Below, in pieces: positions 30,373-56,154 of a DNA stretch of 64,000 nucleotides. Position numbers and translations under genes: made by a program. The notes beneath the pieces are model-generated. The model ran no database searches, was not told the origin of the DNA, and was given only the letters and a program-made list of their open reading frames with translations. Origin of the DNA: a bacterium (GTDB lineage Bacteria > SAR324 > XYD2-FULL-50-16); the NCBI GenBank assembly GCA_018830885.1, contig JAHJRI010000078.1, positions 4,144 to 68,143 of the forward strand, given 5' to 3'. Within the stretch, counting starts at the first letter, position 1, and each line of letters starts with the position of its first letter.

Positions 30373-30427
30373 CCGCCCGTACCCTGCAGAGAAAACTTGG
30401 TACTTAACCCTAACCCCCATATTGACC

Positions 30428-33507: not shown

Positions 33508-33523
33508 GGGTACTCTCCTCTGG

Positions 33524-35020: not shown

Positions 35021-35138
35021 GATTTCTCCCCTTAACCTGGTTACAGTTTCGCATGATTCCGTGTGCACGCCCCTGGCGTGCGGGTATGGATGACACCAGC
35101 AAACAAAAAAATCGCGCTGCGTATCGGGGGTGACCCCG

Positions 35139-36122: not shown

Positions 36123-36149
36123 TGTTTCATGTCCTGTATCAATGGGTTG

Positions 36150-37913: not shown

Positions 37914-37980
37914 GATGTTCTCCATCTTTGTGATCAGTGGGCAATTTGTCCCGTTCTGGTGAAATATTCCTGTTTCGGTC

Positions 37981-38754: not shown

Positions 38755-38772
38755 GGCTTTTTCTCCCTGGTT

Positions 38773-40146
38773 TTATTCATCATCATCATCGTCATCGTCA
38801 TCGTCATCGGGGATAAATTTCTCAATATAGCTGGTATCGAAGTTCCCCTTTTGAAAATCGGCATCATCCATGACCTGGCTGTAGAGGGAAATCGTCGTTT
38901 TCAGCGGGCTGACATCGAACTCCGCCAATGCGCGCCTCATAATCCGGATCGCCCCTTCCCGGGTCAAATCAAAGGTGATCAGTTTGGCAATGAGGGAGTC
39001 GTAATAGATCGGCAACTCGTAGCCCTCATAGAGATGGGTATCCAGCCTGACACCGAATCCACCTGGAGGACGGTAGGAGACAATCTTTCCCGGTGAGGGC
39101 ATGAAGTTCATGGCGGGATTTTCGGCGTTAATCCGGCACTCTATCGCCCACCCCCGGATATTCAGTTCCTCGTAGGTGTAACCCAGCAACTCGCCATACG
39201 CGAGACGGATCTGCTCCCTGACCAGGTCAATCCCGGTGGTCAGCTCCGTCACCGGGTGCTCCACCTGGATACGGGAATTGATCTCGATAAAATAGAAGTC
39301 GTTGTTTTTATCCAGCAAAAATTCCACCGTCCCGGCATTAAAATAGTTGAGGGCCTTTGCAGCCTTGATGGCAGCCAGACCCATCTCCTGCCTTAATTCA
39401 GGCGTCAATCCGGGAGACGGGGCCTCTTCGATCAGTTTCTGGTAGCGGCGCTGGATGGTGCACTCCCGTTCACCGAGATGAATCACATCCCCGGACCGGT
39501 CCGCCAGAATCTGGAATTCGATGTGCCGGGGCTGGACAATATACTTTTCAAGATAGACGGTGCTATTGCCAAAAGCGGCCCCGGCCTCGGATTTCGCTAT
39601 GGAGAACTCCTCGCTGAGGGTAGCTTCGTCACTGCAGACACGAATACCGCGCCCCCCGCCGCCACCGGAGGACTTGATCATCACCGGGTATCCGATGTCA
39701 ACCGCGATCAGCCGGGCTACCGCAATGTCATCGACACCCCCGGGACTGCTGGGAATGACCGGTACCCCGGCAGCCGCCACCACTTTCTTACCGGCGATTT
39801 TATCACCTGCCAGGCTGAGGTTGTGGGGAGTGGGACCGATGAAGACGATACCGCTGTCTGCACAGGCTTTGGCAAATTCCTCTTTTTCAGCCAGATAACC
39901 ATACCCGGGATGTATGGCTTCCGCCCCGGTCTCCTTGGCAGCCTGGATGATACTGTCAATATTCAGATAGCTTTTGGCACTGATGGGCGGCCCGATACAG
40001 ACCTGTTCATCGGCCAGCTTCAGATGCAGCGATTCGGCATCCGCCTCCGAATAGACAGCGACGCTCTGAATCCCCATCTCTCTGCAGGCACGGATGATCC
40101 GGACGGCAATTTCGCCCCGGTTGGCAACTAGAATCTTCGAAAACAT
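38773..40146 (-). CDS. accC: Biotin carboxylase
   Basis: ANRGEIA, HPGYGYLAE, GGGGRG, ERECTIQRR, RIQVEHPVTE; ends in D10-E. Confidence 0.95.
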   Translation of the reverse strand: MFSKILVANRGEIAVRIIRACREMGIQSVAVYSEADAESLHLKLADEQVCIGPPISAKSYLNIDSIIQAAKETGAEAIHPGYGYLAEKEEFAKACADSGIVFIGPTPHNLSLAGDKIAGKKVVAAAGVPVIPSSPGGVDDIAVARLIAVDIGYPVMIKSSGGGGGRGIRVCSDEATLSEEFSIAKSEAGAAFGNSTVYLEKYIVQPRHIEFQILADRSGDVIHLGERECTIQRRYQKLIEEAPSPGLTPELRQEMGLAAIKAAKALNYFNAGTVEFLLDKNNDFYFIEINSRIQVEHPVTELTTGIDLVREQIRLAYGELLGYTYEELNIRGWAIECRINAENPAMNFMPSPGKIVSYRPPGGFGVRLDTHLYEGYELPIYYDSLIAKLITFDLTREGAIRIMRRALAEFDVSPLKTTISLYSQVMDDADFQKGNFDTSYIEKFIPDDDDDDDDDDE

Positions 40147-40171
40147 GGGTTCCTGTTATAATGAAAAAAAA

Positions 40172-40441
40172 GTAACTATTCAGTTTTTAAGTTACACATT
40201 CAATTAACTAACTGAAGTCATGTTCGGTCTTTTCGAAGCTGCAAGTCTCGCTTCTCATGAACGGATTGGAAGTGGCTAAGCATCGCCAGGATGGCGATGT
40301 CAACGACCGCCCTCGGAAGACGGCCATGGATGACCGTCGAGAATGAGTTCAATGACAGACTGATCATGACTGTTCGCGAACCTTCTGAGCAACTGCTTCG
40401 AATCGTGACAAGAATACCTTGTAAGTTAGCTGAATAGTTGC
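40172..40441. mobile_element. MITE-like non-coding element (270 bp) containing structured repeat copy B
   Basis: Terminal inverted repeats GTAACTATTCAG (40172-40183) / CTGAATAGTTGC (40430-40441), 11/12 match; A-rich flanks; internal hairpins; no ORF. Confidence 0.55.
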
Positions 40442-40507
40442 AGAAGAAAAAAATAAGCCGAACGCCGTGACTGTTACAAAACTGTTTCAGCAGACACGGC
40501 GAATATG

Positions 40508-40768
40508 TTAATCGGTCTCAAGAACAAACATGACATCGCCGTCACCCAGGGCTTTTTCATTTTCAGCTACAATCTCCACCACCGTGCCACTGGTCGGCGA
40601 CTTAATTTTTTGAAACACCTTCATGGTCTCCAGCAGGCCCAGCACCTGCTTCTTCTTGACTTCCGTCCCAATCTCCACATAGGGGGGCTGGTCCGGTGCC
40701 GATTGACGGTAAAACACGCCTGACATAGGGGCTTTTACTTCAACTCGTTTACCACTGTTGTCTGCCAT
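40508..40768 (-). CDS. accB: Biotin carboxyl carrier protein (lipoyl/biotinyl domain only)
   Basis: APMSGVFYR, ETMKV biotinylation Lys; 86 aa from ATG 40768. Confidence 0.88.
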   Translation of the reverse strand: MADNSGKRVEVKAPMSGVFYRQSAPDQPPYVEIGTEVKKKQVLGLLETMKVFQKIKSPTSGTVVEIVAENEKALGDGDVMFVLETD

Positions 40769-40985
40769 ATGTTTATCCTTGAATAGTCTGAGATTTATAA
40801 TTACTGAAATTGAACGATCTCCCCCCATCCCCATCCTCATCCCCTTCCCTACAGGCAATCATTCTTTCAGCCAGGAAGGGTGATCAAAAGGCTATTTCCT
40901 CTGTCACTGTTCCATTGGCATTCTGCCCTCAGTACGGCGAGCGATGTCAATTGCAGGGTATACCGTCCTTGCCTCCCTGTTTTCA

Positions 40986-42551
40986 CTAGGTGGGTGGCGT
41001 ACCATGGATCTTTGCCCGTTCCGGCAGTTTCTCCACCTTGTTACGGGTGATATTCAGCGCCTCGATGATTTTCCTGCGGGTATCATCGGGATTGATGATT
41101 TCATCGACCACCTGGGCCGTGAACGTCCGGCCCACATCAAAAACATCCACTTTTTCCCGCGAACGATTGAGATATCCCTCGTACGCATCCTCCTCGATAC
41201 CCTCAACAACCTTGCGATAATCCTGTGTCGATGCCTCCACGGCAAATCTGGCAATAGGCCAGGCATAGGTCAGGTCGGCACCCAGGCCCTTGACACCGCC
41301 CATGATCATGCTGCCGGCGTCGGAATAGGCTTCCCTCAGAATCACGCTGATCTTGGGGATGGTCGCCGTGGCGTATACATCCAGGATCTTGCCAAAATGC
41401 CGGAGCAGCCCGATCGCCTCCTGGTCCTCTCCCGGCACCACCGGTGGGGTATCCACCAGATTGACCAGCGGGATATTGTAAGCGTCCAGAACCTGCAGAA
41501 AACGATAATACTTGTCGCAGGAGTTGATTTCGAGAATACTGCCCGGTTCCGACGGGTTATTGGCAACCAGACCGACGGATTCCCCATTGAACCGGCAGAA
41601 ACAGGTGATCAGGTTTTTGGCGTACTCCTTCTTGATCTCAAAATACACACCGTCATCCACCAGTGCCTCAATCACATCGTGCATGTCATAGGATTTTTCA
41701 TAAACATCCGGAACGATCTCGACCAGCTCAGGCACCGCCCGCAGGGGATCGTCCTTCGGCTTGACATAAGGCGGTTTCTCCCGGAAGTTGGAGGGCAGAT
41801 AGGCCATCAGCTCCCGGGTATACAGGATGGTCTCGGTATCATCCGCACCCACCACATCACAGGTGCCACTCAGCGCCATGTGATAATCCGCACTCCCCAC
41901 CTCCTTGTTAAACTTTTCCGATGTGGCTGCCTGGGTCTGACGGGGTCCTCCCAGCCAGAGATTGCCCGTCTCCCGGCACATCAGCAGAAAGTCGCAGAGG
42001 GTCGGCGCATAGGCCTGGCCTGCGATGCAGGGACCCATGAGCACATTGACCTGGGGGATCACACCGGACACCTGGGACTGCAGCAGAAAATACCAGTCGA
42101 TACCGGCAATGATGACGTCCTGGTGTCCCAGACGCCCTCCGGAGGAATCCAGCAACCAGATCATGGGATACCCCCATTTGGCGGACATCTTGATCAGCTC
42201 GGCCGTCTTCTGAATATGCTGGGCGCCAATCGACCCTCCCAGAACGGTAAAATCGCTGGCATACACGGTCACCATCCGGCCGTGAATCTCTGCAGTCCCC
42301 ATTATGGCACCATCGCAGGGGGCTTCGCTTTTTTTCCCATCCATGCGCTGCCCGGTTGTGTTCACACAGGAGCCCAATTCGTTGAACGTACCGGCATCGA
42401 TCAGGACATCAATCCGCTCCCGGGCGGTCAGTTTGTTGCGACCATGCTGTCTTTCGATATGCTCGATACCGCCACCCATCAGATTTTGCTCCTGAATCCC
42501 TTTCAATCTTTCTATCGCTTTGTTCATTATCTCTGTCATGGTATACCCCAT
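40986..42551 (-). CDS. Acyl-CoA carboxylase carboxyltransferase subunit (paralog 2)
   Basis: KLTARERI, DFTVLGGS, SGVIPQ, GPCIAGQAY; PccB-like length. Confidence 0.9.
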   Translation of the reverse strand: MGYTMTEIMNKAIERLKGIQEQNLMGGGIEHIERQHGRNKLTARERIDVLIDAGTFNELGSCVNTTGQRMDGKKSEAPCDGAIMGTAEIHGRMVTVYASDFTVLGGSIGAQHIQKTAELIKMSAKWGYPMIWLLDSSGGRLGHQDVIIAGIDWYFLLQSQVSGVIPQVNVLMGPCIAGQAYAPTLCDFLLMCRETGNLWLGGPRQTQAATSEKFNKEVGSADYHMALSGTCDVVGADDTETILYTRELMAYLPSNFREKPPYVKPKDDPLRAVPELVEIVPDVYEKSYDMHDVIEALVDDGVYFEIKKEYAKNLITCFCRFNGESVGLVANNPSEPGSILEINSCDKYYRFLQVLDAYNIPLVNLVDTPPVVPGEDQEAIGLLRHFGKILDVYATATIPKISVILREAYSDAGSMIMGGVKGLGADLTYAWPIARFAVEASTQDYRKVVEGIEEDAYEGYLNRSREKVDVFDVGRTFTAQVVDEIINPDDTRRKIIEALNITRNKVEKLPERAKIHGTPPT

Positions 42552-42561
42552 TCACTGGTTA

Positions 42562-44109
42562 TCAGGCCGGTTTGATATAGCGTTTCTTGTCGGGCAGACC
42601 CTCCTTCTTGTTCCGGGTCGCTTTCAGGGTGCGGATGATCTTGGAGCGCGTATCCCTGGGATCTATCGGTTCCTGGATCATATAGTAGGAGGTCCATTCC
42701 CGGGCGTTCATGACGCTGAAATGCTCCTTCAGAATATTGAGATAGGAGTCGTAAACCTCCTGGTAATTTCCCGCTTCTTTGGCCTTGGCCAGCTCCTTGT
42801 GAAAGACGGCCTGAACCACGGCATCCGGTCCGGTGGGGGCAAACTCGGCGGTCGGCCAGCCATAGATGTTGTCCGGCTGCATCCGGGAACACCCCATCAC
42901 GATATTGGCCCCGCCATAGGCCCGCCTCAGCACGATCGTCACTTTCTGGTTGGTCAGGTGGGAATAGGAGTGCAGGTTCTTGGCACCATGCCGGATAATT
43001 CCCACCCGCTCCCATTTGTCTCCCGGCACATAGGCCGTGGAATCCACCAGGTTGACCAGGGGAATACTGAACGCATCGAGAAAATTCATGAACCGGTCAT
43101 ACTTGTCCGATGAGTCGATTTCAAAAATACCGCTCAGTTCATCCGGGTTGTTCGCGATAACCCCCACCACTTCCCCCGCCATGCGACAGAATCCGGTGAC
43201 GAGATGCGTGGCAAAATCCGGCTGCAACTCAAAAAATTCACCGTTATCCACAATCTTTTCAATTATCTCGTGGATGTCATAGGTAAACTTGGGATTATCC
43301 GGCATCACCGCCAGAATTCCCTCCTCCCTGCGGTCCGGGTCATCCTTCGTATCCACCCAGGGTGCTTTTTCCCAGCAGTTCTGCGGCAGATAGGCCAGCA
43401 GCTGCTTCGTTTTATCGATCGCATCCGCATCATCTTCAGCAATCAGATCCACCTGGCCGGATTTCTCCATATGAAATTCGGCCCGACCCGCCTCCCCGGT
43501 CTTGATGTCACCCCCCAGCCACAGAAAACCGGTCTGTTCATTCATGATCAGAAAATCAGCCAGGACTGGCAGCGCAGCCATCGTCCCTGTGCAGGGACCC
43601 AGCAGCAGCATGATCCTGGGAATCACACCGGAATAGAGACAGTAGGCTCGAATCAAGCGGGACAGACCATTCAGGCCCGTCTGGCCATTCTTAATCCCCA
43701 GCCGCTCACCGGCCGAATCCATGATGCCGATGACAGGCATCCGCCGCTGACCGGCCATTTCCACCAGTTCTGCTATTTTCCATGCGGCCTGGTCTCCCAG
43801 GGAACCCGACATGACCGTAAAATCCATGGAAAAAACCATCACCGGTCGGCCATCCACCTCACCATAACCCATGACCACACCTTCCGCAGGCGTCGGTCTG
43901 AGTTTACCGTCATAAGGGGGACGCGTATCCCGCACCAGTGAACCCACCTCATCAAAACTGCCCGGATCCAGTAAATGGTCGATTCTCTCCCGGGCTGTCA
44001 ATTTTCCCAGGTCGCGCTGTACCTTGAGACGTGATTCGCCTCCGGCGTTGATGCTCTCCTGGCGATTGTTCTCCAGTTTGGCCAGATAACCATCCATCCA
44101 TTGTCCCAT
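42562..44109 (-). CDS. Acyl-CoA carboxylase carboxyltransferase subunit (paralog 1)
   Basis: GKLTARERI, DFTVMSGS, GIIRHGAK, RRAYGGA. Confidence 0.9.
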   Translation of the reverse strand: MGQWMDGYLAKLENNRQESINAGGESRLKVQRDLGKLTARERIDHLLDPGSFDEVGSLVRDTRPPYDGKLRPTPAEGVVMGYGEVDGRPVMVFSMDFTVMSGSLGDQAAWKIAELVEMAGQRRMPVIGIMDSAGERLGIKNGQTGLNGLSRLIRAYCLYSGVIPRIMLLLGPCTGTMAALPVLADFLIMNEQTGFLWLGGDIKTGEAGRAEFHMEKSGQVDLIAEDDADAIDKTKQLLAYLPQNCWEKAPWVDTKDDPDRREEGILAVMPDNPKFTYDIHEIIEKIVDNGEFFELQPDFATHLVTGFCRMAGEVVGVIANNPDELSGIFEIDSSDKYDRFMNFLDAFSIPLVNLVDSTAYVPGDKWERVGIIRHGAKNLHSYSHLTNQKVTIVLRRAYGGANIVMGCSRMQPDNIYGWPTAEFAPTGPDAVVQAVFHKELAKAKEAGNYQEVYDSYLNILKEHFSVMNAREWTSYYMIQEPIDPRDTRSKIIRTLKATRNKKEGLPDKKRYIKPA

Positions 44110-44534: not shown

Positions 44535-44745
44535 ACCCCGATAACCGGAGCGTCATGCGCCTTGAAACGGGTGTCCTGGTTCAAAAAAGCGAGGTTTTTC
44601 GCCATCGTCTGTGCCACGAGCTTTCGATCAAAAGGGTCGCGGTGATTGATGGGCAGGGCAGTGGGTATCGATCCGGATGGTTTCGATCAGCCGGGAGATA
44701 TCGAGGTGCTGGTCAATAAGCGGGTCATACCGTGGGATGTCGAAA
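44535..44745 (-). pseudogene. vapC: VapC (PIN) toxin C-terminal remnant
   Basis: Minus frame reads ALPINHRDPFDRKLVAQTMAKNLAFLNQDTRF, matching the VapC HRDPFDR motif; upstream part in another frame, no N-terminus or antitoxin. Confidence 0.65.
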
Positions 44746-44778
44746 TCAGCACTGCTGATTTCGACAGGATCCAGCTGA

Positions 44779-45492
44779 TTACCGGCAGTGGATGCAGGTA
44801 TCAAAATGGTTTTCAGGCAGTTTGAATTTGGTTTGAAAATATTCCAGCTGCTTGATGGGGGCAATTTCCCGGCCGCAGGACTTGCATTTCTGCATGGGAA
44901 ATTCGGTATCCCAGATGGTGCGGATGCCGTCCTTTTGTTTCAGGGGGATGACATCGACCGGACAGATCTGGGAACAGGATCCGCAGGCGATACAGTCAAT
45001 TGCCGGGCCCTCGAAGGGGGTTGTCACTTCACGGGTGTAGCCGCGACCCTTGTACCCGATTGCGTTAACGCCGACCACCTCCCGGCACACTCTGACGCAC
45101 TGACCGCAGAGAATACAGCCCTTCTGTTCCAGTTCGAAACGGGATTTGCTGATCCCCAACCGTGCTGCGATCTCTTTGAGTTTGGAGCTGTATGGATTGC
45201 GAGCAATCAGCAGCTCAATGACCAGTCGACGCACGTTTTGAACCCGTGGGGTCTCGGTTTGAATGTCCAGGCCGGGGGCAACTTCGTAGATACAGGAAGC
45301 CACCATGCGGGTGCGGTTTTTCTGCGCTATTTCCACCATGCAGAGTCGGCATGAGCCGTAAGGATTCAGTTCATCATTATCGCAAAGGGTCGGAATATAG
45401 ATATTGGCCGACTGCGCTGCCCTGAGGATGGTGGTCCCCGGTTCAGCCGGTATCTCTCTGCCGTTGATGGTAATTGTGATGGTTTCAGACAT
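44779..45492 (-). CDS. BfuA/NuoG-N-terminal-like Fe-S protein ([2Fe-2S] + 2x[4Fe-4S] + C-terminal CxxC...CxxC)
   Basis: IPTLC...GSCRLC...ASC, CILCGQCVRVC, CIACGSCSQICP, CKSC...CIHC; no H-cluster or Mo-bisPGD domain. Confidence 0.85.
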   Translation of the reverse strand: MSETITITINGREIPAEPGTTILRAAQSANIYIPTLCDNDELNPYGSCRLCMVEIAQKNRTRMVASCIYEVAPGLDIQTETPRVQNVRRLVIELLIARNPYSSKLKEIAARLGISKSRFELEQKGCILCGQCVRVCREVVGVNAIGYKGRGYTREVTTPFEGPAIDCIACGSCSQICPVDVIPLKQKDGIRTIWDTEFPMQKCKSCGREIAPIKQLEYFQTKFKLPENHFDTCIHCR

Positions 45493-45545
45493 GATTTTCT
45501 CTCTTTTCTAAAAACTCCAGTTCACGGTTTCTGATTCTGACCCGG

Positions 45546-47399
45546 TTAACTCACTCTGACAGCATCGTCGTTGCAGACTTCAAAGCAGGCGCCGCATTGA
45601 ATACACTTTTCCTGGTCGATAACATGCAGCTTTTTCTTCTCGCCACTGATCGCCTGGACAGGACAGGGTTTAACGCACAAGCGACAGCCGGTGCAGGCAT
45701 CAGCATCAATGGTATAGGTGATCAGCGCCTTGCAGACACCGGCCGGACATCTCTTGTCCTTGATATGGGCCTCATACTCCTCCCTGAAATAGCGAATGGT
45801 GCTGAGCACCGGAGAAGGTGCAGAACCGCCCAGTGCGCAGAGAGAGCCATCGGCAATCGCTTCTCCCATCCACTCCAGGGTTTCAATATCACCCTCATGA
45901 CCCCTGCCCTCGGTGATCCGGTCCAGAATCAGACGCATGCGGTGTACCCCTTCCCGACAGGGGGTACATTTGCCGCAGGATTCCTCCTCGAGAAAGCTCA
46001 GAAAGTAGCGTGCCACGTCCACCATACAGTTCCGGTCGTCCATGACGATCATACCCCCGGAACCCATCATGGAACCCAGTTTGGTCAGTTCATCAAAATC
46101 CACCGGGCTGTCCAAATGCTCTTTGGGGATACAGCCACCGGACGGACCACCGGTTTGAACGGCTTTGAACTCCCGTTTATTCGGGATCCCACCACCGATT
46201 TCGTAGATGATTTCCCTCAGGGTCGTTCCCATGGGCACTTCCACCAGGCCGGTATTGTTGATCTTTCCCACCAGGGCAAAAATCTTGGTCCCCTTGCTGC
46301 CCTCGGTACCGATGGACTGATACCAGGCTGACCCCCGGTCAATGATCAGGGGAACGTTGGCCCAGGTTTCCACGTTGTTAAGGGTGGTGGGTTTGTCGTA
46401 AAGACCGCGATCCGTGGCATGGACATACTTGGCTCGGGGTTCCCCGCTGCGTCCTTCAATGGAAGCGAACAGGGCGGAGGACTCCCCGCAGACAAAGGCG
46501 CCGCCGCCACGAATGATCTTGATGTCAAAACAGAAATCGGTGCCCAGGATATTGTCACCCAGCAGCCCCAGTTCACGGGCGTTGTTGATGGCCAGAGCGG
46601 CATTGGTCACCGCCAGGGGGTATTCGTTCCGCACATAGATATAACCCTGGGTGGAGCCGATGGCATAAGCCCCAATGAGCATCCCTTCAAGGATGGCGTG
46701 GGGATTTCCCTCCAGCAGACTGCGGTCCATGTATGCCCCGGGATCTCCCTCGTCAGCATTGCAGATGACGTATTTGATATCGCCTTCCGCCTTGCGGGTC
46801 GCATCCCATTTCCAGCCGGCCGGGAATCCACCGCCGCCCCTGCCGCGCAGGTTGGCATCGATGATTTCCTGGATAACCGCCTCCGGCGCCATGGTGCTGA
46901 GTGCTTTTGCCAGTGCCCGGTAACCGCCGTTGGCCATGTAGTCTTCCATGTTCTTGGGATCGATTTCCGGATTCTGGGCCAGCAACAGACGCATCTGCTT
47001 TTTGTAGAATGACACTTCGTCTTCGCAGGTGACTTTTTCACCGGTGAGCGGCTCTACATAAAGCAACCGATCGATGATTTCACCTTCGCAAACCGTTTTT
47101 TCAAGGATCTCCGCTGCGTCATCAAGTCCCACTTTCTGATAGAATATTTTCCGGGGATTGATCACCACAATGGGGCCTCTTTCGCAGAAACCGTGACAAC
47201 CGGACGTCCGCAGGTCAACCACGTCCTCCAGGTCACGTTTTCCGATTTCCTCTCTAAAGCTGTCGATCAACTGCTGGGTACCATACGCAAGACAACCGGT
47301 GCCGGCACAGATGGTGATGCAGGTTTTGTCCGGGTCCCGTTTGGCGACAATCGAATCCTGCAGCGCCTTTAATTGGTCAGGGGATGTGATTTTCTCCAT
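45546..47399 (-). CDS. HydB/BfuB (NuoF-like) FMN/NAD(P)H-binding subunit
   Basis: N-terminal CAGTGC/GCHGFC, GRGGGGFP, NADEGDPGAYMDR, GGPSGG, ESCGKCTPCREG, C-terminal 2x[4Fe-4S]. Confidence 0.93.
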   Translation of the reverse strand: MEKITSPDQLKALQDSIVAKRDPDKTCITICAGTGCLAYGTQQLIDSFREEIGKRDLEDVVDLRTSGCHGFCERGPIVVINPRKIFYQKVGLDDAAEILEKTVCEGEIIDRLLYVEPLTGEKVTCEDEVSFYKKQMRLLLAQNPEIDPKNMEDYMANGGYRALAKALSTMAPEAVIQEIIDANLRGRGGGGFPAGWKWDATRKAEGDIKYVICNADEGDPGAYMDRSLLEGNPHAILEGMLIGAYAIGSTQGYIYVRNEYPLAVTNAALAINNARELGLLGDNILGTDFCFDIKIIRGGGAFVCGESSALFASIEGRSGEPRAKYVHATDRGLYDKPTTLNNVETWANVPLIIDRGSAWYQSIGTEGSKGTKIFALVGKINNTGLVEVPMGTTLREIIYEIGGGIPNKREFKAVQTGGPSGGCIPKEHLDSPVDFDELTKLGSMMGSGGMIVMDDRNCMVDVARYFLSFLEEESCGKCTPCREGVHRMRLILDRITEGRGHEGDIETLEWMGEAIADGSLCALGGSAPSPVLSTIRYFREEYEAHIKDKRCPAGVCKALITYTIDADACTGCRLCVKPCPVQAISGEKKKLHVIDQEKCIQCGACFEVCNDDAVRVS

Positions 47400-47881
47400 T
47401 ATGATTTACCTTCTTTGCTTTTTTGGCTCTCTTTGCTCAGCTTCTTCAGCAACCGACTGGTTTTGGCAATGGTCATCTGTCCGTGGTATTCCTCGTTGAC
47501 AACCATGACAGGCCCCAAAGCACAGGCTCCCAGGCAGTTGACGGTTTCAAAGGTGTACTCCAGATCCTCGGATGTCTCACCTTCCTTAATATGCAGTTCT
47601 CTTTCAATATGATCAATAATCAAGGGGACCCCCCGGACATGGCAGGCGGTTCCCTTGCAGAGATTGATCTGGAACCGGCCTCTGGGAGTCAGGCTGAAAG
47701 CCTTATAAAATGTCGCCACTTCAAAGATACGGCTCAGGGAAACGTCCAGATAGGAACTGACCAGATCCAGGGCTTCCCTGGGCAGATAGTTCAACTCCTT
47801 TTGGACATCCTGGAGTACGGGAACCAGAAACCCCTTGTCTCCGTCGTATCGATCGATAATCGTTCTGATGGTTTTTTCCAT
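47399..47881 (-). CDS. HydC/BfuC (NuoE-like) [2Fe-2S] subunit
   Basis: VATFY, CKGTACHVRG, CLGACALGP. Confidence 0.93.
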   Translation of the reverse strand: MEKTIRTIIDRYDGDKGFLVPVLQDVQKELNYLPREALDLVSSYLDVSLSRIFEVATFYKAFSLTPRGRFQINLCKGTACHVRGVPLIIDHIERELHIKEGETSEDLEYTFETVNCLGACALGPVMVVNEEYHGQMTIAKTSRLLKKLSKESQKSKEGKS

Positions 47882-47898
47882 GATCTGTTTTCTATTGA

Positions 47899-48828
47899 TT
47901 AGGCTTTAGCCTGGGTTTTTGCCTGCAGTTTTTCGAAATCCTTGGTCACTCTTTTCTGGATGGTATCAATCAGATCGTCGGTCAGGTGCCTGAACCGACC
48001 CTGGGGCTTCAGATACTCTTTGACAGGTCTCAACGGCTCGTCAAAAGAGAGTTTGTATTTACCGTTGGTGACCTCAAAAAGAGGGAAAACACCGGTTTCA
48101 ACCGCCAGGCGGCCGATCCAGATGGCTTTTTTGGTAGGAATCCGCCAGCCGGTAGGACAGACTGACAAAATATGCACATAAGCGGGTCCCTCAATACGGG
48201 CTGCTTTTTCCAGTTTCTGGATCAGGTCCATCGGATAACTGGCACAGGCAGTGGCAACATAGGGTATTTCATGGGCAACCGCAATGGCCGGCATGTTCTT
48301 TTTCCATGTCAGCTGACCCGCACGGGCTTTGCCGGCGGGTGATGTGGTCGTGCTGGCGCCGAACGGGGTCGATGAGGAGCGTTGAATCCCAGTGTTCATA
48401 TAGGCTTCGTTGTCATAGCAGACATAGACCATATTGTGTCCGCGCTCCAGAGCACCCGACAGTGATTGAAAGCCGATGTCCGCTGTCGCACCGTCCCCTC
48501 CCATACCCAGGATGGTTGTTTTCTGATCCGGAATTTTTCCTTTACGCACCAGGGCCTTGAAACCGGCTTCCACACCGGAAGCCACCGCGGCGGAATTCTC
48601 AAAGGCGACATGAATCCAGGGAACACCCCAGCTGGTGTGGGGATACGCCGAGGAGACCACCTCCATACAGCCGGTGGCACAGGCCACCACCGTATTGGGT
48701 CCCAGCGCTTTCGCTACCAGGCGAACGGCCAGCGCTTCAGCGCAACCTTGACAAGCCTTGTGCCCCGGTGTGAAATACTCCTGTTTGTTAACCAGGCGGG
48801 TGGCATATACATTCAAAGGTTCCATCAT
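47899..48828 (-). CDS. porB: 2-oxoacid:ferredoxin oxidoreductase beta subunit (TPP-binding)
   Basis: GHKACQGC, TGC, GGDG...YDNEAYMNTG, CPTGW. Confidence 0.92.
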   Translation of the reverse strand: MMEPLNVYATRLVNKQEYFTPGHKACQGCAEALAVRLVAKALGPNTVVACATGCMEVVSSAYPHTSWGVPWIHVAFENSAAVASGVEAGFKALVRKGKIPDQKTTILGMGGDGATADIGFQSLSGALERGHNMVYVCYDNEAYMNTGIQRSSSTPFGASTTTSPAGKARAGQLTWKKNMPAIAVAHEIPYVATACASYPMDLIQKLEKAARIEGPAYVHILSVCPTGWRIPTKKAIWIGRLAVETGVFPLFEVTNGKYKLSFDEPLRPVKEYLKPQGRFRHLTDDLIDTIQKRVTKDFEKLQAKTQAKA

Positions 48829-50003
48829 TCTCTGGCTCCATATATGGTATAGTCGTTCCGCTTCAGCATCTCTTCCGAAGCGCTGGTCGTTTCTTCATAA
48901 ATCTTGATAAAGTCATCGGCGGTAATATCGCGACCCGCCAGACTGCAGATATAGTTGGTGACGAACGGCATGTTGTCCTGGTGATACAGGGCCGACCGGA
49001 TTTCGCTGGCGACCGGTCCCCCGGGACCGCCAAAGGAGACCGCCCGATCGATGACAATGATCTGGTCAAGACCCTTGACGACTTCTGCCAGCTCTTCAAA
49101 CGGAAAGGGACGCCAGAGTCTCATCTTGAGCAGACCCACGGCCTCTCCTATTTCTCTCAACTCGTCGATGGCCAGTGAAAGGGTTTCACCAATACTTCCC
49201 ATGGAGAGAAAGGCAACTTTTGCACCTTCGGTTTTGTATGACTCAATCGGATGGTAATACCGGCCGCAGACATCCCCCAGTTCTTTCCAGGCGGCGAGTA
49301 TCTGGGTTTTGGATCTCAGCAGCGCCTCGTTCTGGGATTTTTTGGCCTCGGTGAAGATATCCGGCATGCCCAGGGCACCCATGGTGACCGGTTTATCCGG
49401 ATGCAGCCGATGGAGGGGTTTGAAATCGGGCAGGTACCGGTCAACCATCTCCTGTTCCCAGTATTCGATCGGCTCGATCATATGAGAGAGCGAAAAACCG
49501 TCGATATTGATAATTACCGGTAATGACACCTTTTGATCTTCAGCCACCCTGAATGCAAAAAAGATGTTGTCAAACACCTCCTGGCCGTTTTCCGCAAACG
49601 TCTGGATCCAGCCGGTATCCCGAATGGACATGACATCCGAGTGATCGTTCCAGATGCTCAACGGTCCGGAGAGGGACCGATTGGCCAGGATCATGACGAT
49701 GGGCAACTGCATGGAGGCAGCCAGAAAAACGATCTCGTTCATCAGGGCCAATCCCTGGGAACTTGTACAGGTAAATGTCCGGGCACCGGCCGCTGAGGCC
49801 CCGCAGGCGACGCTCATGGCTGAGTGTTCGGATTCCACCGGGACATACTCCGCATCCAGATCGCCGGCAGCCACCAGTTCAGCCAGATGTTCCACAATAT
49901 GGGTTTGCGGTGTGATGGGATAAGCCGCCACAACGTCCACATTTGTCATCCCGATAGCATCAGCTGCCGCGACGGATACTTCGACACCAGTTTTTTTGGC
50001 CAT
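48825..50003 (-). CDS. porA: 2-oxoacid:ferredoxin oxidoreductase alpha subunit
   Basis: AYPITPQT, ESEHSA, TSSQG, NRSL, DGF; ATG 50003 overlaps the porD stop. Confidence 0.92.
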   Translation of the reverse strand: MAKKTGVEVSVAAADAIGMTNVDVVAAYPITPQTHIVEHLAELVAAGDLDAEYVPVESEHSAMSVACGASAAGARTFTCTSSQGLALMNEIVFLAASMQLPIVMILANRSLSGPLSIWNDHSDVMSIRDTGWIQTFAENGQEVFDNIFFAFRVAEDQKVSLPVIINIDGFSLSHMIEPIEYWEQEMVDRYLPDFKPLHRLHPDKPVTMGALGMPDIFTEAKKSQNEALLRSKTQILAAWKELGDVCGRYYHPIESYKTEGAKVAFLSMGSIGETLSLAIDELREIGEAVGLLKMRLWRPFPFEELAEVVKGLDQIIVIDRAVSFGGPGGPVASEIRSALYHQDNMPFVTNYICSLAGRDITADDFIKIYEETTSASEEMLKRNDYTIYGARE

Positions 50004-50296
50004 TACTCCTCCTCCGCAACCATGGTGATACACCCGGTAAAACACTCTGCCGAGCAGATACCACACCCTTTGCAGTAATAAAGATCTGCCTGAAAAAAGC
50101 CCTCCTCGGTCTTGGCGATGGCCATGTCCGGACAGAAAATGTAGCAGATACCGCATTTAATGCACTGGGATTGATCAACCACCGGACGTTCAGATCGCCA
50201 ATCACCGGTTTTGTACTCTCTTGAAGTTCCCGGTTCGCGCATGACAAAGCCAGCGTCCAGATCCTTCCAGCCCGGTTCCGATTTTAATTTTGCCAA
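50003..50296 (-). CDS. porD: 2-oxoacid:ferredoxin oxidoreductase delta subunit
   Basis: TGDWR, CIKCGICYIFCP, YCKGCGICSAEC. Confidence 0.9.
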   Translation of the reverse strand: MAKLKSEPGWKDLDAGFVMREPGTSREYKTGDWRSERPVVDQSQCIKCGICYIFCPDMAIAKTEEGFFQADLYYCKGCGICSAECFTGCITMVAEEE

Positions 50297-50482
50297 ATCA
50301 TTCTCCTTCTTGCATACAGCTAAAACAACGGATCATGAATGATCCTGTTCCAAAATCCTGGTGAAACGCACCGTTCCGTATTCCAGGTCACTTCCATGAG
50401 ACAGCAGCCTGATCCTCATTGTCGATTCAGAAGGCACCGTTTCCAGGGGTGTATTGATAAATAACAGTGTTACCGTTCAGTG

Positions 50483-51028
50483 TCAGCCGATCTCCGTCTC
50501 CCGAAAGGCCCTTTTCAACGCGTTGATGTTCTTGTCTGCAATACGGCCGAATCGGTGTTTGAGCGGTCCAATCAGAGCTTCGATGGAGATCAGTTCATTG
50601 GCCTTGAGCAGGGACCCCAGCATGGTCGTATTGGTAATGGGCAGTCCCAGTTCTTCAATGGCGATTCGATTTGCATCGACCGTACCCATTCGGTGACGGA
50701 TACCCAGCTCTTCCCGCAGTTCGGCTGCGGTGTGTTTTGAGTTGGTGACCAGAATCCCATCCTCCTTCAGACCCGAGGTGACATCCACCAACCTGAGTAT
50801 GGAAGGATCCAGAACCATGACCAGGTCAGGTGAGTGGATCATGTGCCTGTTGCGAATCGGATGGTCATCAATCCGGATGAATGCCATCACGGGGGCGCCC
50901 CTTCTTTCCGGACCGAAATTGGGAAATGCCTGGGCATATTTCCCAATTCCAATCGCAGCAGTCGCCAGAAGCTCGGCAGAAGTAACTGCTCCCTGGCCAC
51001 CCCGGCCGTGTAGTCGAATCTCAATCAT
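50483..51028 (-). CDS. porG: 2-oxoacid:ferredoxin oxidoreductase gamma subunit
   Basis: HGRGGQG, FGPERRGAP, NTTMLG. Confidence 0.92.
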   Translation of the reverse strand: MIEIRLHGRGGQGAVTSAELLATAAIGIGKYAQAFPNFGPERRGAPVMAFIRIDDHPIRNRHMIHSPDLVMVLDPSILRLVDVTSGLKEDGILVTNSKHTAAELREELGIRHRMGTVDANRIAIEELGLPITNTTMLGSLLKANELISIEALIGPLKHRFGRIADKNINALKRAFRETEIG

Positions 51029-51536: not shown

Positions 51537-51553
51537 TGGCAATTATGATGCCA
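51537..51553 (-). promoter_or_regulatory. Sigma54 (-24/-12) promoter facing the por-bfu operon
   Basis: Minus-strand TGGCATCATAATTGC (GG-N10-GC), next to a sigma54 activator gene; candidate enhancer palindrome GAGATATATCTC at 51634-51645. Confidence 0.65.
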
Positions 51554-51760
51554 CTTTCCCGGAATGCATATTATAAACTGTTATTTCAGGTTACTATAAA
51601 TTTTCGGGGCTGGTCCGCACGGACGGGTCAATTGAGATATATCTCTATTTGGTGATCTTTCTATAATTTGGTTTTTACAGAATTGGCGAAATTTGTCACA
51701 ATTCAGGCTGAAAAACATCGCTTTTATCCCCTTTGCAACCGCACCCGATAAGGTCCCTTT

Positions 51761-54700
51761 ATGACAGTGACAACCGAATCGAACGAACTCCTGGCCAAAG
51801 CAGCGCTTTTCGACGGTGTTTTTTCCATTGACTGGCTGCTGAACCTGTCCAACATGAAAGTATCCCGTATCCTGGCCATTCTGGATGAGCATGTCCGGAG
51901 CGGGTTATTGGAAAAGGCGTCATCCGGGCTCTACAGTTTCTGCAATCACGAGCAACGCGAGCAGTTGGCCGGTATTGTCAGTGACAATCGGAAAGAGGAG
52001 CTCCATCGGGAGATCATCGACATCCTCAAGGCGGAAATACCGGCAGAGGAGCAGCGTGCGACCATTCTCTCCCGCCATTTACTCCATGTCTCAAACGATC
52101 TGGAGGGGTGCCAGTTACTGATCAAAGCTGGGGATCTTTATGCCGAAGAGGTGAAATACAAAGAGGCCATCCAGTGTTATGCCAAAACGATCAAGGATCT
52201 GGACAGTGTCCGGCACAATGAGGCCGATCTGTTATATATAGAAACGGTCAATAAGTACATGAACCTTTTTTCAGTCAGGATAGACAGCAACTGGGCCACC
52301 ACCATTCTCCAGAATGCGCTGGCGCGGGCCGAAGCTATCAACAACAACGGGTTTCTGGCCATCCTCAACATGCATATGGCGGTCAACCAATGGCAGCGCG
52401 CCCATTTTGATGTATCCAAGGTTCATTACGACCGGGGCTGGGCTGCGGCCCAGAGGGTGGAAGATCCCAAGCTGTTGAAATCCATTTATACCCTGAGCGC
52501 TTTTTTTTATTACCTGCAGGGACGGTTCCTCGATACTATCAAGGAGTATGAAAAATCGATCCAGAACGTGGAAAAATTCCCGGAGGACACCTCCCTGCTC
52601 TTTGCCATTGCGGCGATCGGCCGTTCCTATGCAGCCATTGGGCAGGCCAGTCAGGGTTTGGGGATGCTGGATGCCATCCGCAAGCATTGTCTCAAGATCA
52701 ACCAGTTGCAGGTTGCCGAGTGGGCGGTTTTGCAGATTGGCTATATCCTGAAGGGGATCGGTCGGATTGATGATGCCCACAAACTTCTGGCCGATCTGGG
52801 CGGCGAAACCATTAAATCCGGAGATGCCCGCCTCAAGGAGGACCTGAAATTACTGCAGGCACTGATTTACTACTGGAAAGAGAACAAGGAAACATCGGTC
52901 GAGCATCTCAAGGAGTATTTCAAGATCGTCGAGGAGAACGAGGCATTGGGGGTCCCGACATCCTCCTATGGTTTTATGCTGCAGATCTGCTGGTCCATGG
53001 AACTGGAAAAATATCCCCGGATCAACGACATTTCCCTCGAGGAGGCCGTCAATCAATCGATCAGCGGGAAAAACACCTTTTACAAGGGGTATGGATTCCG
53101 CTACAAGGCACTGTTGCAAAAACAGAACAACCACAGCCCGGAGGAGATTCTCAAAACCCTGACCCTTTCTCTGCGCTGCCTGGAAAAATCCGGGCACCGC
53201 CTGGCCATCGCCCGCACCCGTATTGAGATCGCCCGCCAGTACCTGGCCATGGGGAACCAGAATCTGGCCAGAAAAGAGGCCAAGAAGGCGGCGGCGACGA
53301 TTCTCTCCCATAAGGAACTCCATTTCCCCGACGATCTGAAATTTCTGATCAAGGATATACACATCAAGGATAACCTGCTGGAGGAGATTCTGAAGCTGGG
53401 GCAGGAGATCACCACGATCCGCAACACCAAGGACATTGAAAAGCATATTATCCTGACCGCGATTCAGGTGACCGGAGCAGAACGGGGCGCCATTTTTCTG
53501 CTGGACAGGGAGCACAGACCCGGTGAATTCGAGCTGCGGGCAGCCAAGAACCTGACAGAGGAGGACATCCGGCGGTCCGATTTCCGGGAACAGATGGCAA
53601 TGATGCGTGAGGTGGTTAAATCCGGAAAAGGGATCATTAAAAAATCGGATCCCCCCGAACAGAAACCCAACTCGCCCTATAATGTCCGCTCCTATATTTG
53701 TGTGCCCATGATCATTAAAAATGAAATCCTGGGGGTGCTCTATTTTGACAACCGGTTTCTGGCCTCGGCCTTTAAGAAATCGGATCTCAACATGTTTACC
53801 TATTTTGCCACCCAGACGGCGATCGCCATGGACAACGCCGAGGCCTACGACGAGGTGCAGCGTCTCAACAAGCGCCTGAAAAAGGAGAAACAGTATTATA
53901 AGGAGCGACATCTCGAAAGCCTGCGGTTTGATAAAATCATCGGTGAGAGTCCACCCATCCTGAACGTATTGAACAAGGTCATCCAGGTGGCGGACACCGA
54001 CACCACCGTCCTGATCACGGGGGAGACCGGTGTAGGGAAGGAGCTGGTGGCCAGAACCATTGTCGATAAGAGTCCCCGCGCGGATAAGCCCTTTGTCTCG
54101 GTGAACTGCAGTGTCTTTTCAGAAACACTAATCGCCAGCGAACTGTTCGGACATGAGAAGGGCGCTTTCACCGGCGCCAATGAAAAAAAAGCGGGGCGGT
54201 TCGAGCTGGCGGATGGCGGAACCCTTTTTCTGGATGAGATCGGGGATATTCCCATGGAAGTGCAGGTCCGGTTGTTACGTGTACTGCAGGTCCAGGAATT
54301 TGAACGCGTCGGCGGCACCAAGACACTGCACTCGGATTTCCGCCTGATCGTGGCCACCAACCAGAATCTCGAAAAAATGGTCAAAACCGGTCGGTTCCGC
54401 GAGGATCTCTTCTACCGGCTCAATGTCTTTCCCATCCAGGTACCGCCGCTGCGAAAAAGAAAGGAGGACATCCCCCATCTGGCCCTGCACTTTCTGAAAA
54501 CGATCAGCCAGAAAATGGGCAAGCATTTTACCGAAATCCTGGAAAGCGAAATGGAAAAACTGGTCAGTTACAGCTGGCCGGGAAATGTGCGGGAACTCGA
54601 AAATGTCATTGAGCGCGGGGTGATCATGAGTTCAAAATCCAGTTTCAAGGTGCCGGAATTGAACACGGACCAGCCCGGCGCCGGTGTCAACAACACCCTG

Positions 54701-54874
54701 TTGACCCTGGCGGAAAACGAAAAACAGCACATCCTGCAGGCCATGGAAAAAACAAACTGGAAAATCAGCGGCCCTGGCGGGGCGGCAGAACTACTGGATA
54801 TCAACTATGGCACTCTGCGGTCACGGATGGCCAAACACGGCATCCGCAAGAAGACCCGGGCGGCGGACGACTAG
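51761..54874 (+). CDS. Sigma54-dependent activator with long helical/TPR-like N-terminus, GAF, AAA+ and HTH
   Basis: GETGVGKE, ELFGHEKGAFTGA, LFLDEIGD, FREDLFYRLNV, WPGNVRELEN, GAF (TGAERG...LYFDN), terminal HTH. Confidence 0.93.
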   Translation: MTVTTESNELLAKAALFDGVFSIDWLLNLSNMKVSRILAILDEHVRSGLLEKASSGLYSFCNHEQREQLAGIVSDNRKEELHREIIDILKAEIPAEEQRATILSRHLLHVSNDLEGCQLLIKAGDLYAEEVKYKEAIQCYAKTIKDLDSVRHNEADLLYIETVNKYMNLFSVRIDSNWATTILQNALARAEAINNNGFLAILNMHMAVNQWQRAHFDVSKVHYDRGWAAAQRVEDPKLLKSIYTLSAFFYYLQGRFLDTIKEYEKSIQNVEKFPEDTSLLFAIAAIGRSYAAIGQASQGLGMLDAIRKHCLKINQLQVAEWAVLQIGYILKGIGRIDDAHKLLADLGGETIKSGDARLKEDLKLLQALIYYWKENKETSVEHLKEYFKIVEENEALGVPTSSYGFMLQICWSMELEKYPRINDISLEEAVNQSISGKNTFYKGYGFRYKALLQKQNNHSPEEILKTLTLSLRCLEKSGHRLAIARTRIEIARQYLAMGNQNLARKEAKKAAATILSHKELHFPDDLKFLIKDIHIKDNLLEEILKLGQEITTIRNTKDIEKHIILTAIQVTGAERGAIFLLDREHRPGEFELRAAKNLTEEDIRRSDFREQMAMMREVVKSGKGIIKKSDPPEQKPNSPYNVRSYICVPMIIKNEILGVLYFDNRFLASAFKKSDLNMFTYFATQTAIAMDNAEAYDEVQRLNKRLKKEKQYYKERHLESLRFDKIIGESPPILNVLNKVIQVADTDTTVLITGETGVGKELVARTIVDKSPRADKPFVSVNCSVFSETLIASELFGHEKGAFTGANEKKAGRFELADGGTLFLDEIGDIPMEVQVRLLRVLQVQEFERVGGTKTLHSDFRLIVATNQNLEKMVKTGRFREDLFYRLNVFPIQVPPLRKRKEDIPHLALHFLKTISQKMGKHFTEILESEMEKLVSYSWPGNVRELENVIERGVIMSSKSSFKVPELNTDQPGAGVNNTLLTLAENEKQHILQAMEKTNWKISGPGGAAELLDINYGTLRSRMAKHGIRKKTRAADD

Positions 54875-55047
54875 TCGATCCATCGACTGCGGGAGGCTTC
54901 CTGAAAGCAGCAGCCACTGCCTCCCGGAGCCATCCCCCGGCAGCCCTGTTCACGCAGCTGGGGTCAAATACCACCCGGTCAGATAGGGGTCGTTCCAGGC
55001 ATGTCCTATTACCGGCAGCAGGGATAGGTCGCAGGTCTGGATAGATA

Positions 55048-55076
55048 TTGACTGATCCACCCGTCCTGAATAGAAT
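55048..55076 (+). promoter_or_regulatory. Sigma70-like promoter
   Basis: TTGACT-N17-TAGAAT upstream of the BKACE gene. Confidence 0.55.
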
Positions 55077-55215
55077 GGTTTTCCAGAAGGACCCATCCCC
55101 CGACGCGCCCTTTCCGTCAAAGGGCATCCGGTGAACCGGCGTCGCCGCGATCGCCTTCAAGAACTGATCAATCGGACGGACAGTGACGTCAAAACAGAAT
55201 AGGAGAACACAAATT

Positions 55216-56154
55216 ATGGCAAAAAGAACAAACAAGGTCATTATCAGCTGTGCGATGACAGGGGCGATTCATACGCCCACCATGTCGGACTATCTGCCCA
55301 TCACACCGGAAGACCTGATCCGGCAGGGTGTTGATGCGGCCGCAGCCGGCGCGACGATTCTGCATCTGCACGCCCGGGACCCCAAAACAGGCATGCCGGT
55401 CGGGGACCCGGAAGTCTTCAAGCAGTTTCTGCCCCAGCTGAAAGCCCAATGTAATGCGGTGTTGAATCTCACCACCGGGGGCGGCCTGAACATGCAGCTT
55501 CAGGATCGATTGAAAGCAGCCGTCTGGGCCCAGCCGGAGATGTGTTCACTCAATATGGGGTCCATGAATTTCGGTCTTTTCCCGGTTGCCCGACGGTACA
55601 CCACCTGGAAATATGACTGGGAAAAACCGTACCTGGAAGGAACCGACGATTTTATCTTCCGCAACACCTTCAAGGATATCGAGGGCATCCTCAAAACCCT
55701 GGGCGAGGGGTTCGGAACCCGATTCGAATATGAGTGCTACGATATCGGCCATTTGTACAACCTGGCCCATTTTCTGGATCGCGGGCTGGTCAAACCGCCC
55801 CTGTTTGTGCAATCCATTTTCGGAATTCTGGGAGGGATCGGTGCCGATCCGGACAACCTGATCTTCATGAAACGCACAGCAGACCGGCTCTTTGGCGATG
55901 ATTATATCTGGTCGGTCCTGGCCGCCGGCAGGCACCAGATGTCTTTCTGCACCCAGGCTGCGCTGCTGGGCGGCAATGTCCGGGTCGGGCTGGAAGACAG
56001 CCTTTTCCTCGGAAAAGGAGAACCGGCCAAAACCAACGCGGAACAGGTCGCCAAAATTCGCCACCTGCTGGAGACCCTCTCGCTGGAAATCGCCTCCCCG
56101 GACGAGGCCCGTGAGATGCTGGATCTGAAAGGGGCTGACAACGTCGCGTTTTAA
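55216..56154 (+). CDS. Beta-keto acid cleavage enzyme (BKACE/Kce, DUF849) family
   Basis: CAMTGAIHTP, HLHARD, SLNMGSMNF, RVGLED; ATG 55216 with AGGAG SD. Confidence 0.92.
   Translation: MAKRTNKVIISCAMTGAIHTPTMSDYLPITPEDLIRQGVDAAAAGATILHLHARDPKTGMPVGDPEVFKQFLPQLKAQCNAVLNLTTGGGLNMQLQDRLKAAVWAQPEMCSLNMGSMNFGLFPVARRYTTWKYDWEKPYLEGTDDFIFRNTFKDIEGILKTLGEGFGTRFEYECYDIGHLYNLAHFLDRGLVKPPLFVQSIFGILGGIGADPDNLIFMKRTADRLFGDDYIWSVLAAGRHQMSFCTQAALLGGNVRVGLEDSLFLGKGEPAKTNAEQVAKIRHLLETLSLEIASPDEAREMLDLKGADNVAF

Follow-up and report, generated by a model that had tools for sequence, protein, structure and literature searches.

What does a Bfu-type iron-sulfur core serve when its genes encode no catalytic site of their own and lie directly behind those of a complete 2-oxoacid oxidoreductase? 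The question is raised by seven open reading frames (ORFs) on the minus strand, at positions 44779 to 51028, of a 64,000-nucleotide (nt) stretch of contig JAHJRI010000078.1 (GenBank assembly GCA_018830885.1, SAR324 lineage), here called the window. An earlier note, written from the letters of this stretch, had described them as a four-subunit 2-oxoacid:ferredoxin oxidoreductase (POR) joined to a HydABC/Bfu module, and had proposed POR as the catalytic unit of one seven-subunit complex. That reading is reasonable but not new, a prior example being something for which the note had allowed: Schut et al. 2022 (PMC9304861) defined the Bfu family and named within it a seven-subunit "Por-Bfu (A-G)" made of four POR subunits and BfuABC. 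The same paper calls Por-Bfu uncharacterised, in line with the note's remark that it knew of no characterised example, and a literature search, with subscription journals largely outside its coverage, found no biochemical characterisation of Por-Bfu. At the gene level, the seven-gene unit is very probably a member of this predicted class. The best explanation of the locus, which we regard as probable, is a Por-Bfu in which the genes for a pyruvate-type, thiamine pyrophosphate (TPP)-dependent oxidoreductase, PorGDAB, form a single unit with those for BfuCBA.

Gene order and inheritance of the seven genes

The identities of all seven products were confirmed by profile searches against Pfam and NCBIfam (the latter with its curated cut-offs). 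In the direction of transcription the order is porG-porD-porA-porB-bfuC-bfuB-bfuA. The first gene, porG (50483-51028, 181 amino acids [aa]), encodes the gamma subunit of the four-subunit oxidoreductase (Pfam POR, E value 2.4e-39), and it is followed by porD (50003-50296, 97 aa) for the delta subunit with two predicted [4Fe-4S] clusters, porA (48825-50003, 392 aa) for the alpha subunit (Pfam POR_N, 245.5 bits; PFOR_II, 88.9 bits), and porB (47899-48828, 309 aa) for the TPP-binding beta subunit (Pfam TPP_enzyme_C). The Bfu genes are bfuC (47399-47881, 160 aa), encoding a NuoE-like [2Fe-2S] subunit (Pfam 2Fe-2S_thioredx, E value 5.7e-49); bfuB (45546-47399, 617 aa), encoding a NuoF-like subunit for flavin mononucleotide (FMN) and nicotinamide adenine dinucleotide (NAD) with an N-terminal [2Fe-2S] and two C-terminal [4Fe-4S] sites; and bfuA (44779-45492, 237 aa), encoding a short A subunit with motifs for one [2Fe-2S] and two [4Fe-4S] clusters and a C-terminal four-Cys zinc-finger motif.

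From porD onward the junctions are tight. porD and porA overlap by 1 nt (TAATG), porA and porB by 4 nt, and bfuC and bfuB by 1 nt, with gaps of 17 nt between porB and bfuC and 53 nt between bfuB and bfuA. The start codon assigned to porD is a TTG, and an AAGGAG ribosome-binding site precedes it by 8 nt. For porA, a longer frame of 443 aa is an upstream extension, and the ATG that overlaps the porD stop yields the conserved length. ORF coordinates and domain matches agree with the genes, order, and junctions first described.

Synteny was assessed from a BfuB scan of one genome per species, which gave 587 confirmed relatives; the best 80 were kept, and the window proteins were placed at their loci by tblastn. 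por genes stand beside bfuCBA at 20 of these 80 loci, including 17 of the 23 closest. Another 41 loci have at least 3 kb of upstream sequence and no por gene, and 19 could not be judged (18 with less than 3 kb upstream of bfuC, and L043 with a distant oxidoreductase of 25 to 29% identity). The order of the window is found at 18 of the 20 POR-linked loci, two of which are cut by contig ends. The two deviant loci are L003, where porG has moved behind bfuA, and L030 (labelled Dehalococcoidia), where bfuCBA precedes porGDAB and BfuA has 204 aa and no zinc finger. By their record labels, the 20 POR-linked loci comprise 9 Chloroflexota, 7 Thermodesulfobacteriota/"Deltaproteobacteria", 1 SAR324, and 3 unclassified.

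BfuB of the window and of L001 form a pair (77% identity; Shimodaira-Hasegawa-like approximate likelihood ratio test [SH-aLRT] support of 99) in a tree with 81 rows, and the window falls within a six-member clade (SH-aLRT, 98) whose members are all POR-linked. The POR label changes eight times on this tree, against a mean of 18.7 for shuffled labels, and none of 500 shuffles gave a value as low, a test that shows label clustering only. POR-linked loci form several separate groups on the tree; the linkage would therefore have arisen more than once or have been lost often.

The length of BfuA tracks its partner. Among 18 complete POR-linked copies, 17 have 237 to 250 aa, the exception being the 204-aa copy of L030; most other loci encode copies of about 180 to 220, 440, 585, or 1084 aa, and a few non-POR copies measure 221 to 261 aa. 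PorA of the window is 51 to 69% identical to Bfu-linked PorA at loci of the same order and 41% identical at the reversed locus L030; its closest paralogs in its own genome reach 40 to 42%, so that it stands nearer to Bfu-linked PorA from other phyla than to these paralogs. Among 40 genomes searched as relatives of the window genome, full-length BfuA (59 to 84% identity) was found in six, namely, one of two other genomes of the same genus (the second holds fragments) and five of five from one other large-genome genus, and all seven genes occur in order in each of four regions fetched from these relatives.

Because of this synteny, the BfuB clade, the BfuA length, and the PorA identities, the seven genes behave as one inherited unit. 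Recurrence at 20 of 80 loci and the clustering of the POR label on the BfuB tree put the association of por with bfu above chance. Both comparisons that the earlier note had named as checks, conservation of porGDAB-bfuCBA in other genomes (across several phyla here) and BfuB phylogeny, came out in favour of its claim, and so upheld the genomic part of the proposal, that a BfuABC core lacking its own catalytic site has POR as its attached unit.

The Bfu core and candidate partners elsewhere in the genome

In Pfam terms BfuB consists of an N-terminal 2Fe-2S_thioredx domain (residues 23-101), Complex1_51K, SLBB, NADH_4Fe-4S, and a C-terminal pair of Fer4 domains (561-613), and it contains the strings PGAYM and GGPSG; the full HydB architecture read from the letters alone was thus recovered by domain search. 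The same set holds everything by which BfuB is defined in PMC9304861, that is, the NuoF FMN domain, SLBB, the NuoF [4Fe-4S] region, and a ferredoxin-type 4Fe-4S domain. Motifs are also present for the extra clusters that are absent from non-bifurcating NuoF homologues (the N-terminal [2Fe-2S], the two C-terminal [4Fe-4S], and the B2 site). Its closest solved relative is WorB (Protein Data Bank chain 9mqx_B; E value 1.7e-234 over residues 20-614), followed by bifurcating NiFe and FeFe hydrogenases and NfnABC. In the alignment with WorB, the CxxxxC...CxxxC, CxxCxxC...C, and CPAGVC-type motifs and two CxxCxxCxxxCP motifs are all kept, and the Cys residues of BfuB can be assigned to putative clusters by this homology.

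BfuA carries Fer2_4 and a Fer4 dicluster (Pfam), and no H-cluster or molybdopterin domain was found in it by Pfam and NCBIfam domain search. At the position of the His/Cys cluster of its relatives (A3) it reads LLIARNPYSSK, and no His/Cys ligand stands there in any of 16 aligned POR-linked BfuA sequences. Search and alignment thus bear out the description of an A-like subunit that stops at 237 aa with no H-cluster, Mo/W site, or His/Cys cluster. Sixteen Cys residues are invariant in all 16 rows: four for the [2Fe-2S] cluster, four plus four for the [4Fe-4S] clusters, and four C-terminal. The last four, on which the first description had not remarked, form CxxC...CxxC within the final 35 residues (C203, C206, C233, and C236), a predicted zinc-finger motif shared by 17 of the 18 complete POR-linked copies (not L030). 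Chains in the 16 rows end 0 to 4 residues past the last Cys, and BfuA of the window ends one residue past it.

These features match the published expectation for Por-Bfu. According to PMC9304861, Por-Bfu is a Type 2 Bfu enzyme whose BfuA lacks A3 and A5 and takes in electrons through A4; BfuA of the window likewise has ligands for A1, A2, and A4 and none for A3 or A5. The nearest solved structure is WorABCSL, the tungsten aldehyde oxidoreductase-Bfu of Acetomicrobium mobile (9MQX; Feng et al. 2025, PMC12318220), whose WorA (247 aa) is the best solved match of BfuA as WorB is of BfuB (9mqx_A, E value 4.9e-46). An AlphaFold model of BfuA (mean predicted local distance difference test score, 81) also had 9mqx_A as its top Foldseek match (template modelling scores, 0.70/0.68; 36% identity). 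As described in PMC12318220, WorA is short, lacks A3, receives electrons through A4, and builds its zinc finger with the four Cys that in other cases ligate A5, and its C-terminal helix docks the catalytic WorS; the Por-Bfu homologue is said there to have the zinc finger and to lack the helix, which is exactly the form of BfuA in the window. WorABCSL differs from the window in its catalytic module, WorSL with a polyferredoxin nanowire, in place of which the window encodes POR. The [FeFe]-hydrogenases HydABC (Thermoanaerobacter kivui 8A6T, Acetobacterium woodii 7Q4V, and Thermotoga maritima 7P5H) share the BfuB/BfuC core (BfuB, E values 1e-200 to 1e-231), but their A subunit is 570 to 650 aa long and includes the H-cluster domain. 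Similarity to the HoxEFU diaphorase of bidirectional [NiFe]-hydrogenase is more distant, with HoxU (133.4 bits against 333) and HoxE (122.9 against 224) both under the NCBIfam cut-off.

A core without a catalytic site might instead work with the product of a distant locus; a hydrogenase, a formate dehydrogenase, and an 11-subunit Nuo-type complex lacking its NADH module come into question, and separately encoded nuoEFG serving an 11-subunit Nuo has been raised for Chloroflexi (PMC5736913). The host genome (7.41 Mb in 496 contigs, 93% complete, 6.4% contamination) is a draft from which the absence of a partner cannot be concluded, and it does offer candidates. NuoD-type genes occur at three loci, none with a NuoF match on the same contig, and [FeFe]-hydrogenase-like genes are present. 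Only one catalytic [FeFe]-hydrogenase gene, with a His-cluster domain, was seen in the genome; it lies on the 3-kb contig C285 (L097:4-3046) behind a fusion gene that joins the C-terminal end of a NuoF to a GltD-like NAD(P) domain, and, adjoining this fusion, it therefore seems to have an NADH module of its own. Three Complex1_51K hits were found in the genome: BfuB of the window, RnfC in an Rnf operon, and a NuoE/NuoF pair at the end of the 3.8-kb contig C370 (L096:1862-3766). C370 and C285 may carry the two parts of a single hydrogenase operon.

The other hydrogenase-like gene, on contig C106 (L098:5605-7656, minus strand), is a fusion of a hydrogenase-like domain to a histidine kinase, with a GAF histidine kinase and a response regulator adjoining; it looks like a sensory hydrogenase. 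The hydrogenase and the NuoE/NuoF pair on C285 and C370, and the kinase nature of the remaining candidate, speak against a partner elsewhere. So do the conservation of the POR linkage across phyla and the missing His-ligated cluster of BfuA, which we take to be the counterpart of N5 on the way into complex I. We consider a partner encoded elsewhere highly improbable.

Substrate, regulation, and neighbouring genes

Which 2-oxoacid would PorGDAB use? For each of the four subunits the top NCBIfam score comes from a pyruvate model, ahead of those for ketoisovalerate, oxalate, and phenylglyoxylate. PorB passes the equivalog "pyruvate synthase subunit PorB" (430.8 bits against a cut-off of 405). PorG and PorD pass the broader pyruvate/ketoisovalerate subfamily models (PorC_KorC, 212.7 bits against 81.1; PorD_KorD, 96.6 against 60.05) and fall below the pyruvate equivalogs (214.7 against 225 and 106.2 against 120, respectively), and the best model of PorA, PorA_Arch, reaches 469.1 bits under an equivalog cut-off of 550. 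PorD also matches a Pfam Fer4 dicluster, with eight Cys invariant in all 16 aligned rows. Since PorA, PorD, and PorG lie under their equivalog cut-offs, the models would not settle the substrate, a point that counts against calling the enzyme a pyruvate oxidoreductase outright.

The stand-alone, archaeal-type PorABDG shares with the operon its four subunits and its top models, the PorB equivalog included, and differs in having ferredoxin as its only acceptor, with no NAD module; paralogs of this kind in the host genome reach only 40 to 42% identity to PorA of the window. The earlier note had also drawn an analogy to the NADH-dependent phenylglyoxylate dehydrogenase PadEFGHI. The shared idea, in which a POR-type enzyme gains an NAD-reducing subunit, stands; a close kinship does not, all four Pad models scoring far below cut-off (174.6 bits against 300, 74.2 against 150, 304.5 against 700, and 252.8 against 700). 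The NAD module of Pad is not known to be of the NuoEF/Bfu type.

Regulation of the operon gives a further view of its role. Upstream of porG lies an AT-rich gap of 732 nt and then a divergent gene for a sigma-54 activator (51761-54874, plus strand, 1037 aa; long N-terminal region, GAF, AAA+ sigma-54 interaction domain, and HTH_8 by Pfam and NCBIfam). The activator is kept at the same position in G001, a genome of the same genus (83% identity), as is its neighbouring gene, and it is absent beside the operon in three fetched genomes of the other genus. A putative sigma-54 -24/-12 element, TGGCAT-N5-TTGC (51538-51553, minus strand), precedes the porG ATG by about 510 nt, and G001 has a perfect TGGCAC-N5-TTGCT with differing flanks. 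About 90 nt upstream of the -24 element, within a block conserved with G001, is the palindrome GAGATATATCTC (51634-51645), present as a single exact copy in the window, which we infer to be a candidate binding site for the activator.

Two points tell against this promoter. A count of sigma-54 motifs over the window stays at chance level (6, with 4.9 expected), which leaves position, orientation, and conservation in a single relative, G001, as the grounds for the element, and a leader of about 510 nt is long. No Rfam family matched at the gathering score anywhere in the window, and no known RNA element was found in the 510-nt leader or the spacers. The operon in this genus nonetheless appears to start from a sigma-54 promoter under the divergent GAF-domain activator, and such control suggests induced expression, not constitutive or housekeeping expression.

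At the other end, a 13-bp hairpin without a U-run (44738-44766, minus strand) begins 13 nt after the bfuA stop (-21.3 kcal/mol; z, -4.48; none of 200 shuffles as stable) and is likely the 3' end of the transcript. Beyond it, a gap of 670 nt with a TTGACA-17-TATTAT site precedes carboxyltransferase genes. On the grounds of the hairpin, the gap, and this promoter-like site, the operon is taken to comprise the seven genes only.

The genes beyond this gap (32350-44109), on the same strand as the operon, encode two carboxyltransferases, a biotin carboxylase, an enoyl-CoA hydratase (CoA, coenzyme A), AtuA, an NMO-type flavoprotein, a flavin adenine dinucleotide oxidoreductase, and a ferredoxin-reductase-like protein, a set that resembles acyclic-terpene or leucine-type carboxylase pathways; an acyl-CoA dehydrogenase gene follows at 30422-31921 (plus strand). 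On the far side, just past the activator gene, is a gene for a beta-keto-acid cleavage enzyme (55183-56154, plus strand) whose place is kept in G001 and whose product passes the NCBIfam equivalog "3,5-dioxohexanoate:acetyl-CoA acetone transferase" (528.9 bits against 430). It may be a further target of the activator, and no second sigma-54 element was seen in the 308 nt before it (54860-55200 read).

From these surroundings another substrate can be argued, namely, that the Por-Bfu complex acts on a non-pyruvate 2-oxoacid supplied by the catabolic neighbours on both sides and that this compound induces the operon through the sigma-54 activator. PorB being the only subunit over a pyruvate-specific cut-off, the dedicated GAF-domain activator with its promoter, and the catabolic genes themselves all fit such a view. 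It sits poorly with the lead of the pyruvate models in all four subunits and with the hairpin, gap, and promoter-like site that lie between bfuA and the carboxylase genes. Moreover, at none of the 20 POR-linked loci and in none of the three fetched relatives of the other genus do carboxylase and AtuA genes adjoin the operon (the contig of G001 ends right after bfuA). We judge this alternative improbable. Much the same low standing is given to a wider proposal, in which Por-Bfu here would be either a catabolic enzyme, induced by its substrate through the dedicated GAF-domain sigma-54 activator, for a 2-oxoacid from the carboxylase, Atu-like, and beta-keto-acid cleavage genes or an NADH- and ferredoxin-driven reductive carboxylase of an acyl-CoA, and not the anabolic pyruvate synthase proposed for Dehalococcoides.

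Proposed electron path and coupling, and place in the Por-Bfu class

In the preferred reading, the products of por and bfuABC probably form one physical complex, with a path that may be traced by homology to WorABCSL and HydABC. A 2-oxoacid and CoA would react at the TPP site of PorA/PorB, and electrons would pass to the [4Fe-4S] cluster of PorB and on to the two clusters of PorD. They would enter BfuA at the outer [4Fe-4S] cluster, A4, and continue through A2 and the [2Fe-2S] cluster A1 to the FMN site of BfuB/BfuC, where they would be split between NAD+ (as hydride) and ferredoxin (Fd; via the C-terminal clusters of BfuB). The expected reaction would be 2 pyruvate + 2 CoA + NAD+ + 2 Fd(ox) = 2 acetyl-CoA + 2 CO2 + NADH + 2 Fd(red), and it may be reversible. 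That reduction of NAD+ and of ferredoxin would be obligately coupled is a more tentative proposal, to which we give somewhat less than even weight. For Por-Bfu, PMC9304861 puts forward both directions, synthesis of pyruvate at the expense of NADH and ferredoxin or its oxidation with coupled reduction of the two acceptors, and proposes pyruvate synthesis under energy limitation as its role.

Several points weigh against a bifurcating complex. Pyruvate, at about -500 mV, is able to reduce NAD+ and ferredoxin alike with no coupling, and the authors of PMC9304861 find no clear reason why such low-potential donors would need bifurcation. In the available text of both PMC9304861 and PMC12318220, Por-Bfu is uncharacterised or hypothetical, its complex and its bifurcation being predictions. 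In a Dehalococcoides complexome, PorA, PorB, and PorG co-migrate, and the available text (PMC6005880) mentions no Bfu subunit alongside them. Judged by their lengths, none of the POR subunits has an extra domain usable as a docking adaptor.

The 186-nt spacer that splits porG from porD is a further such point. It contains a small hairpin with a T-run (50330-50345, minus strand; -11 kcal/mol; z, -3.58), which is kept only in the same-genus G001 among four relatives aligned and could either reduce read-through to porD or denote a site of processing. A 28-aa ORF in this spacer was considered and dropped, since G001 lacks the stretch and the other three relatives could not be aligned there.

Some of these observations fit two co-expressed enzymes, in which free ferredoxin is reduced by a POR of the usual kind, BfuABC works on its own to pass electrons between ferredoxin and NAD(H), and the ferredoxin pool is the sole link of the two. 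POR subunits with no added docking domain, the complexome with its Por subunits seen apart from Bfu partners, and the deviant loci (L030 with its opposite order and its BfuA without the zinc finger, L003 with porG at the other end) would all be expected of such an arrangement. A free-standing BfuA without a catalytic site would, however, leave its cluster branch a dead end, and the characterised Bfu enzymes described in PMC9304861 and PMC12318220 take a third substrate through BfuA or its substitute. The tight junctions, above all the 17 nt between porB and bfuC, and the inheritance of POR and Bfu together across phyla also favour one unit. Two separate enzymes are thus an unlikely account, though the strongest of the alternatives, and a single Por-Bfu complex stays the reading that we prefer.

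Within the published class, Por-Bfu has been reported in Chloroflexi and syntrophic "Proteobacteria", with BfuB assigned to clades 35, 44, or 45 (PMC9304861), and those carriers are also the nearest relatives found for the window. The window differs from the class in its sigma-54 promoter and divergent activator, which go unmentioned in the available text of that paper; the pyruvate synthesis proposed there stands against the induced role that regulation at the window suggests.

Like several other Bfu enzymes, Por-Bfu is so far a prediction. Whether a pyruvate oxidoreductase can be wired into an FMN/iron-sulfur bifurcating core, and why low-potential pyruvate would need one, are questions that the window does not answer. 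What it adds is a further lineage, represented by a genome of 7.4 Mb for which the nearest named relative bears the label SAR324 cluster; POR and Bfu genes that are inherited jointly as one unit; and a likely regulatory handle, formed by the sigma-54 promoter, the palindrome, and the GAF-domain activator, which points to use under particular conditions and could help to direct studies of expression.

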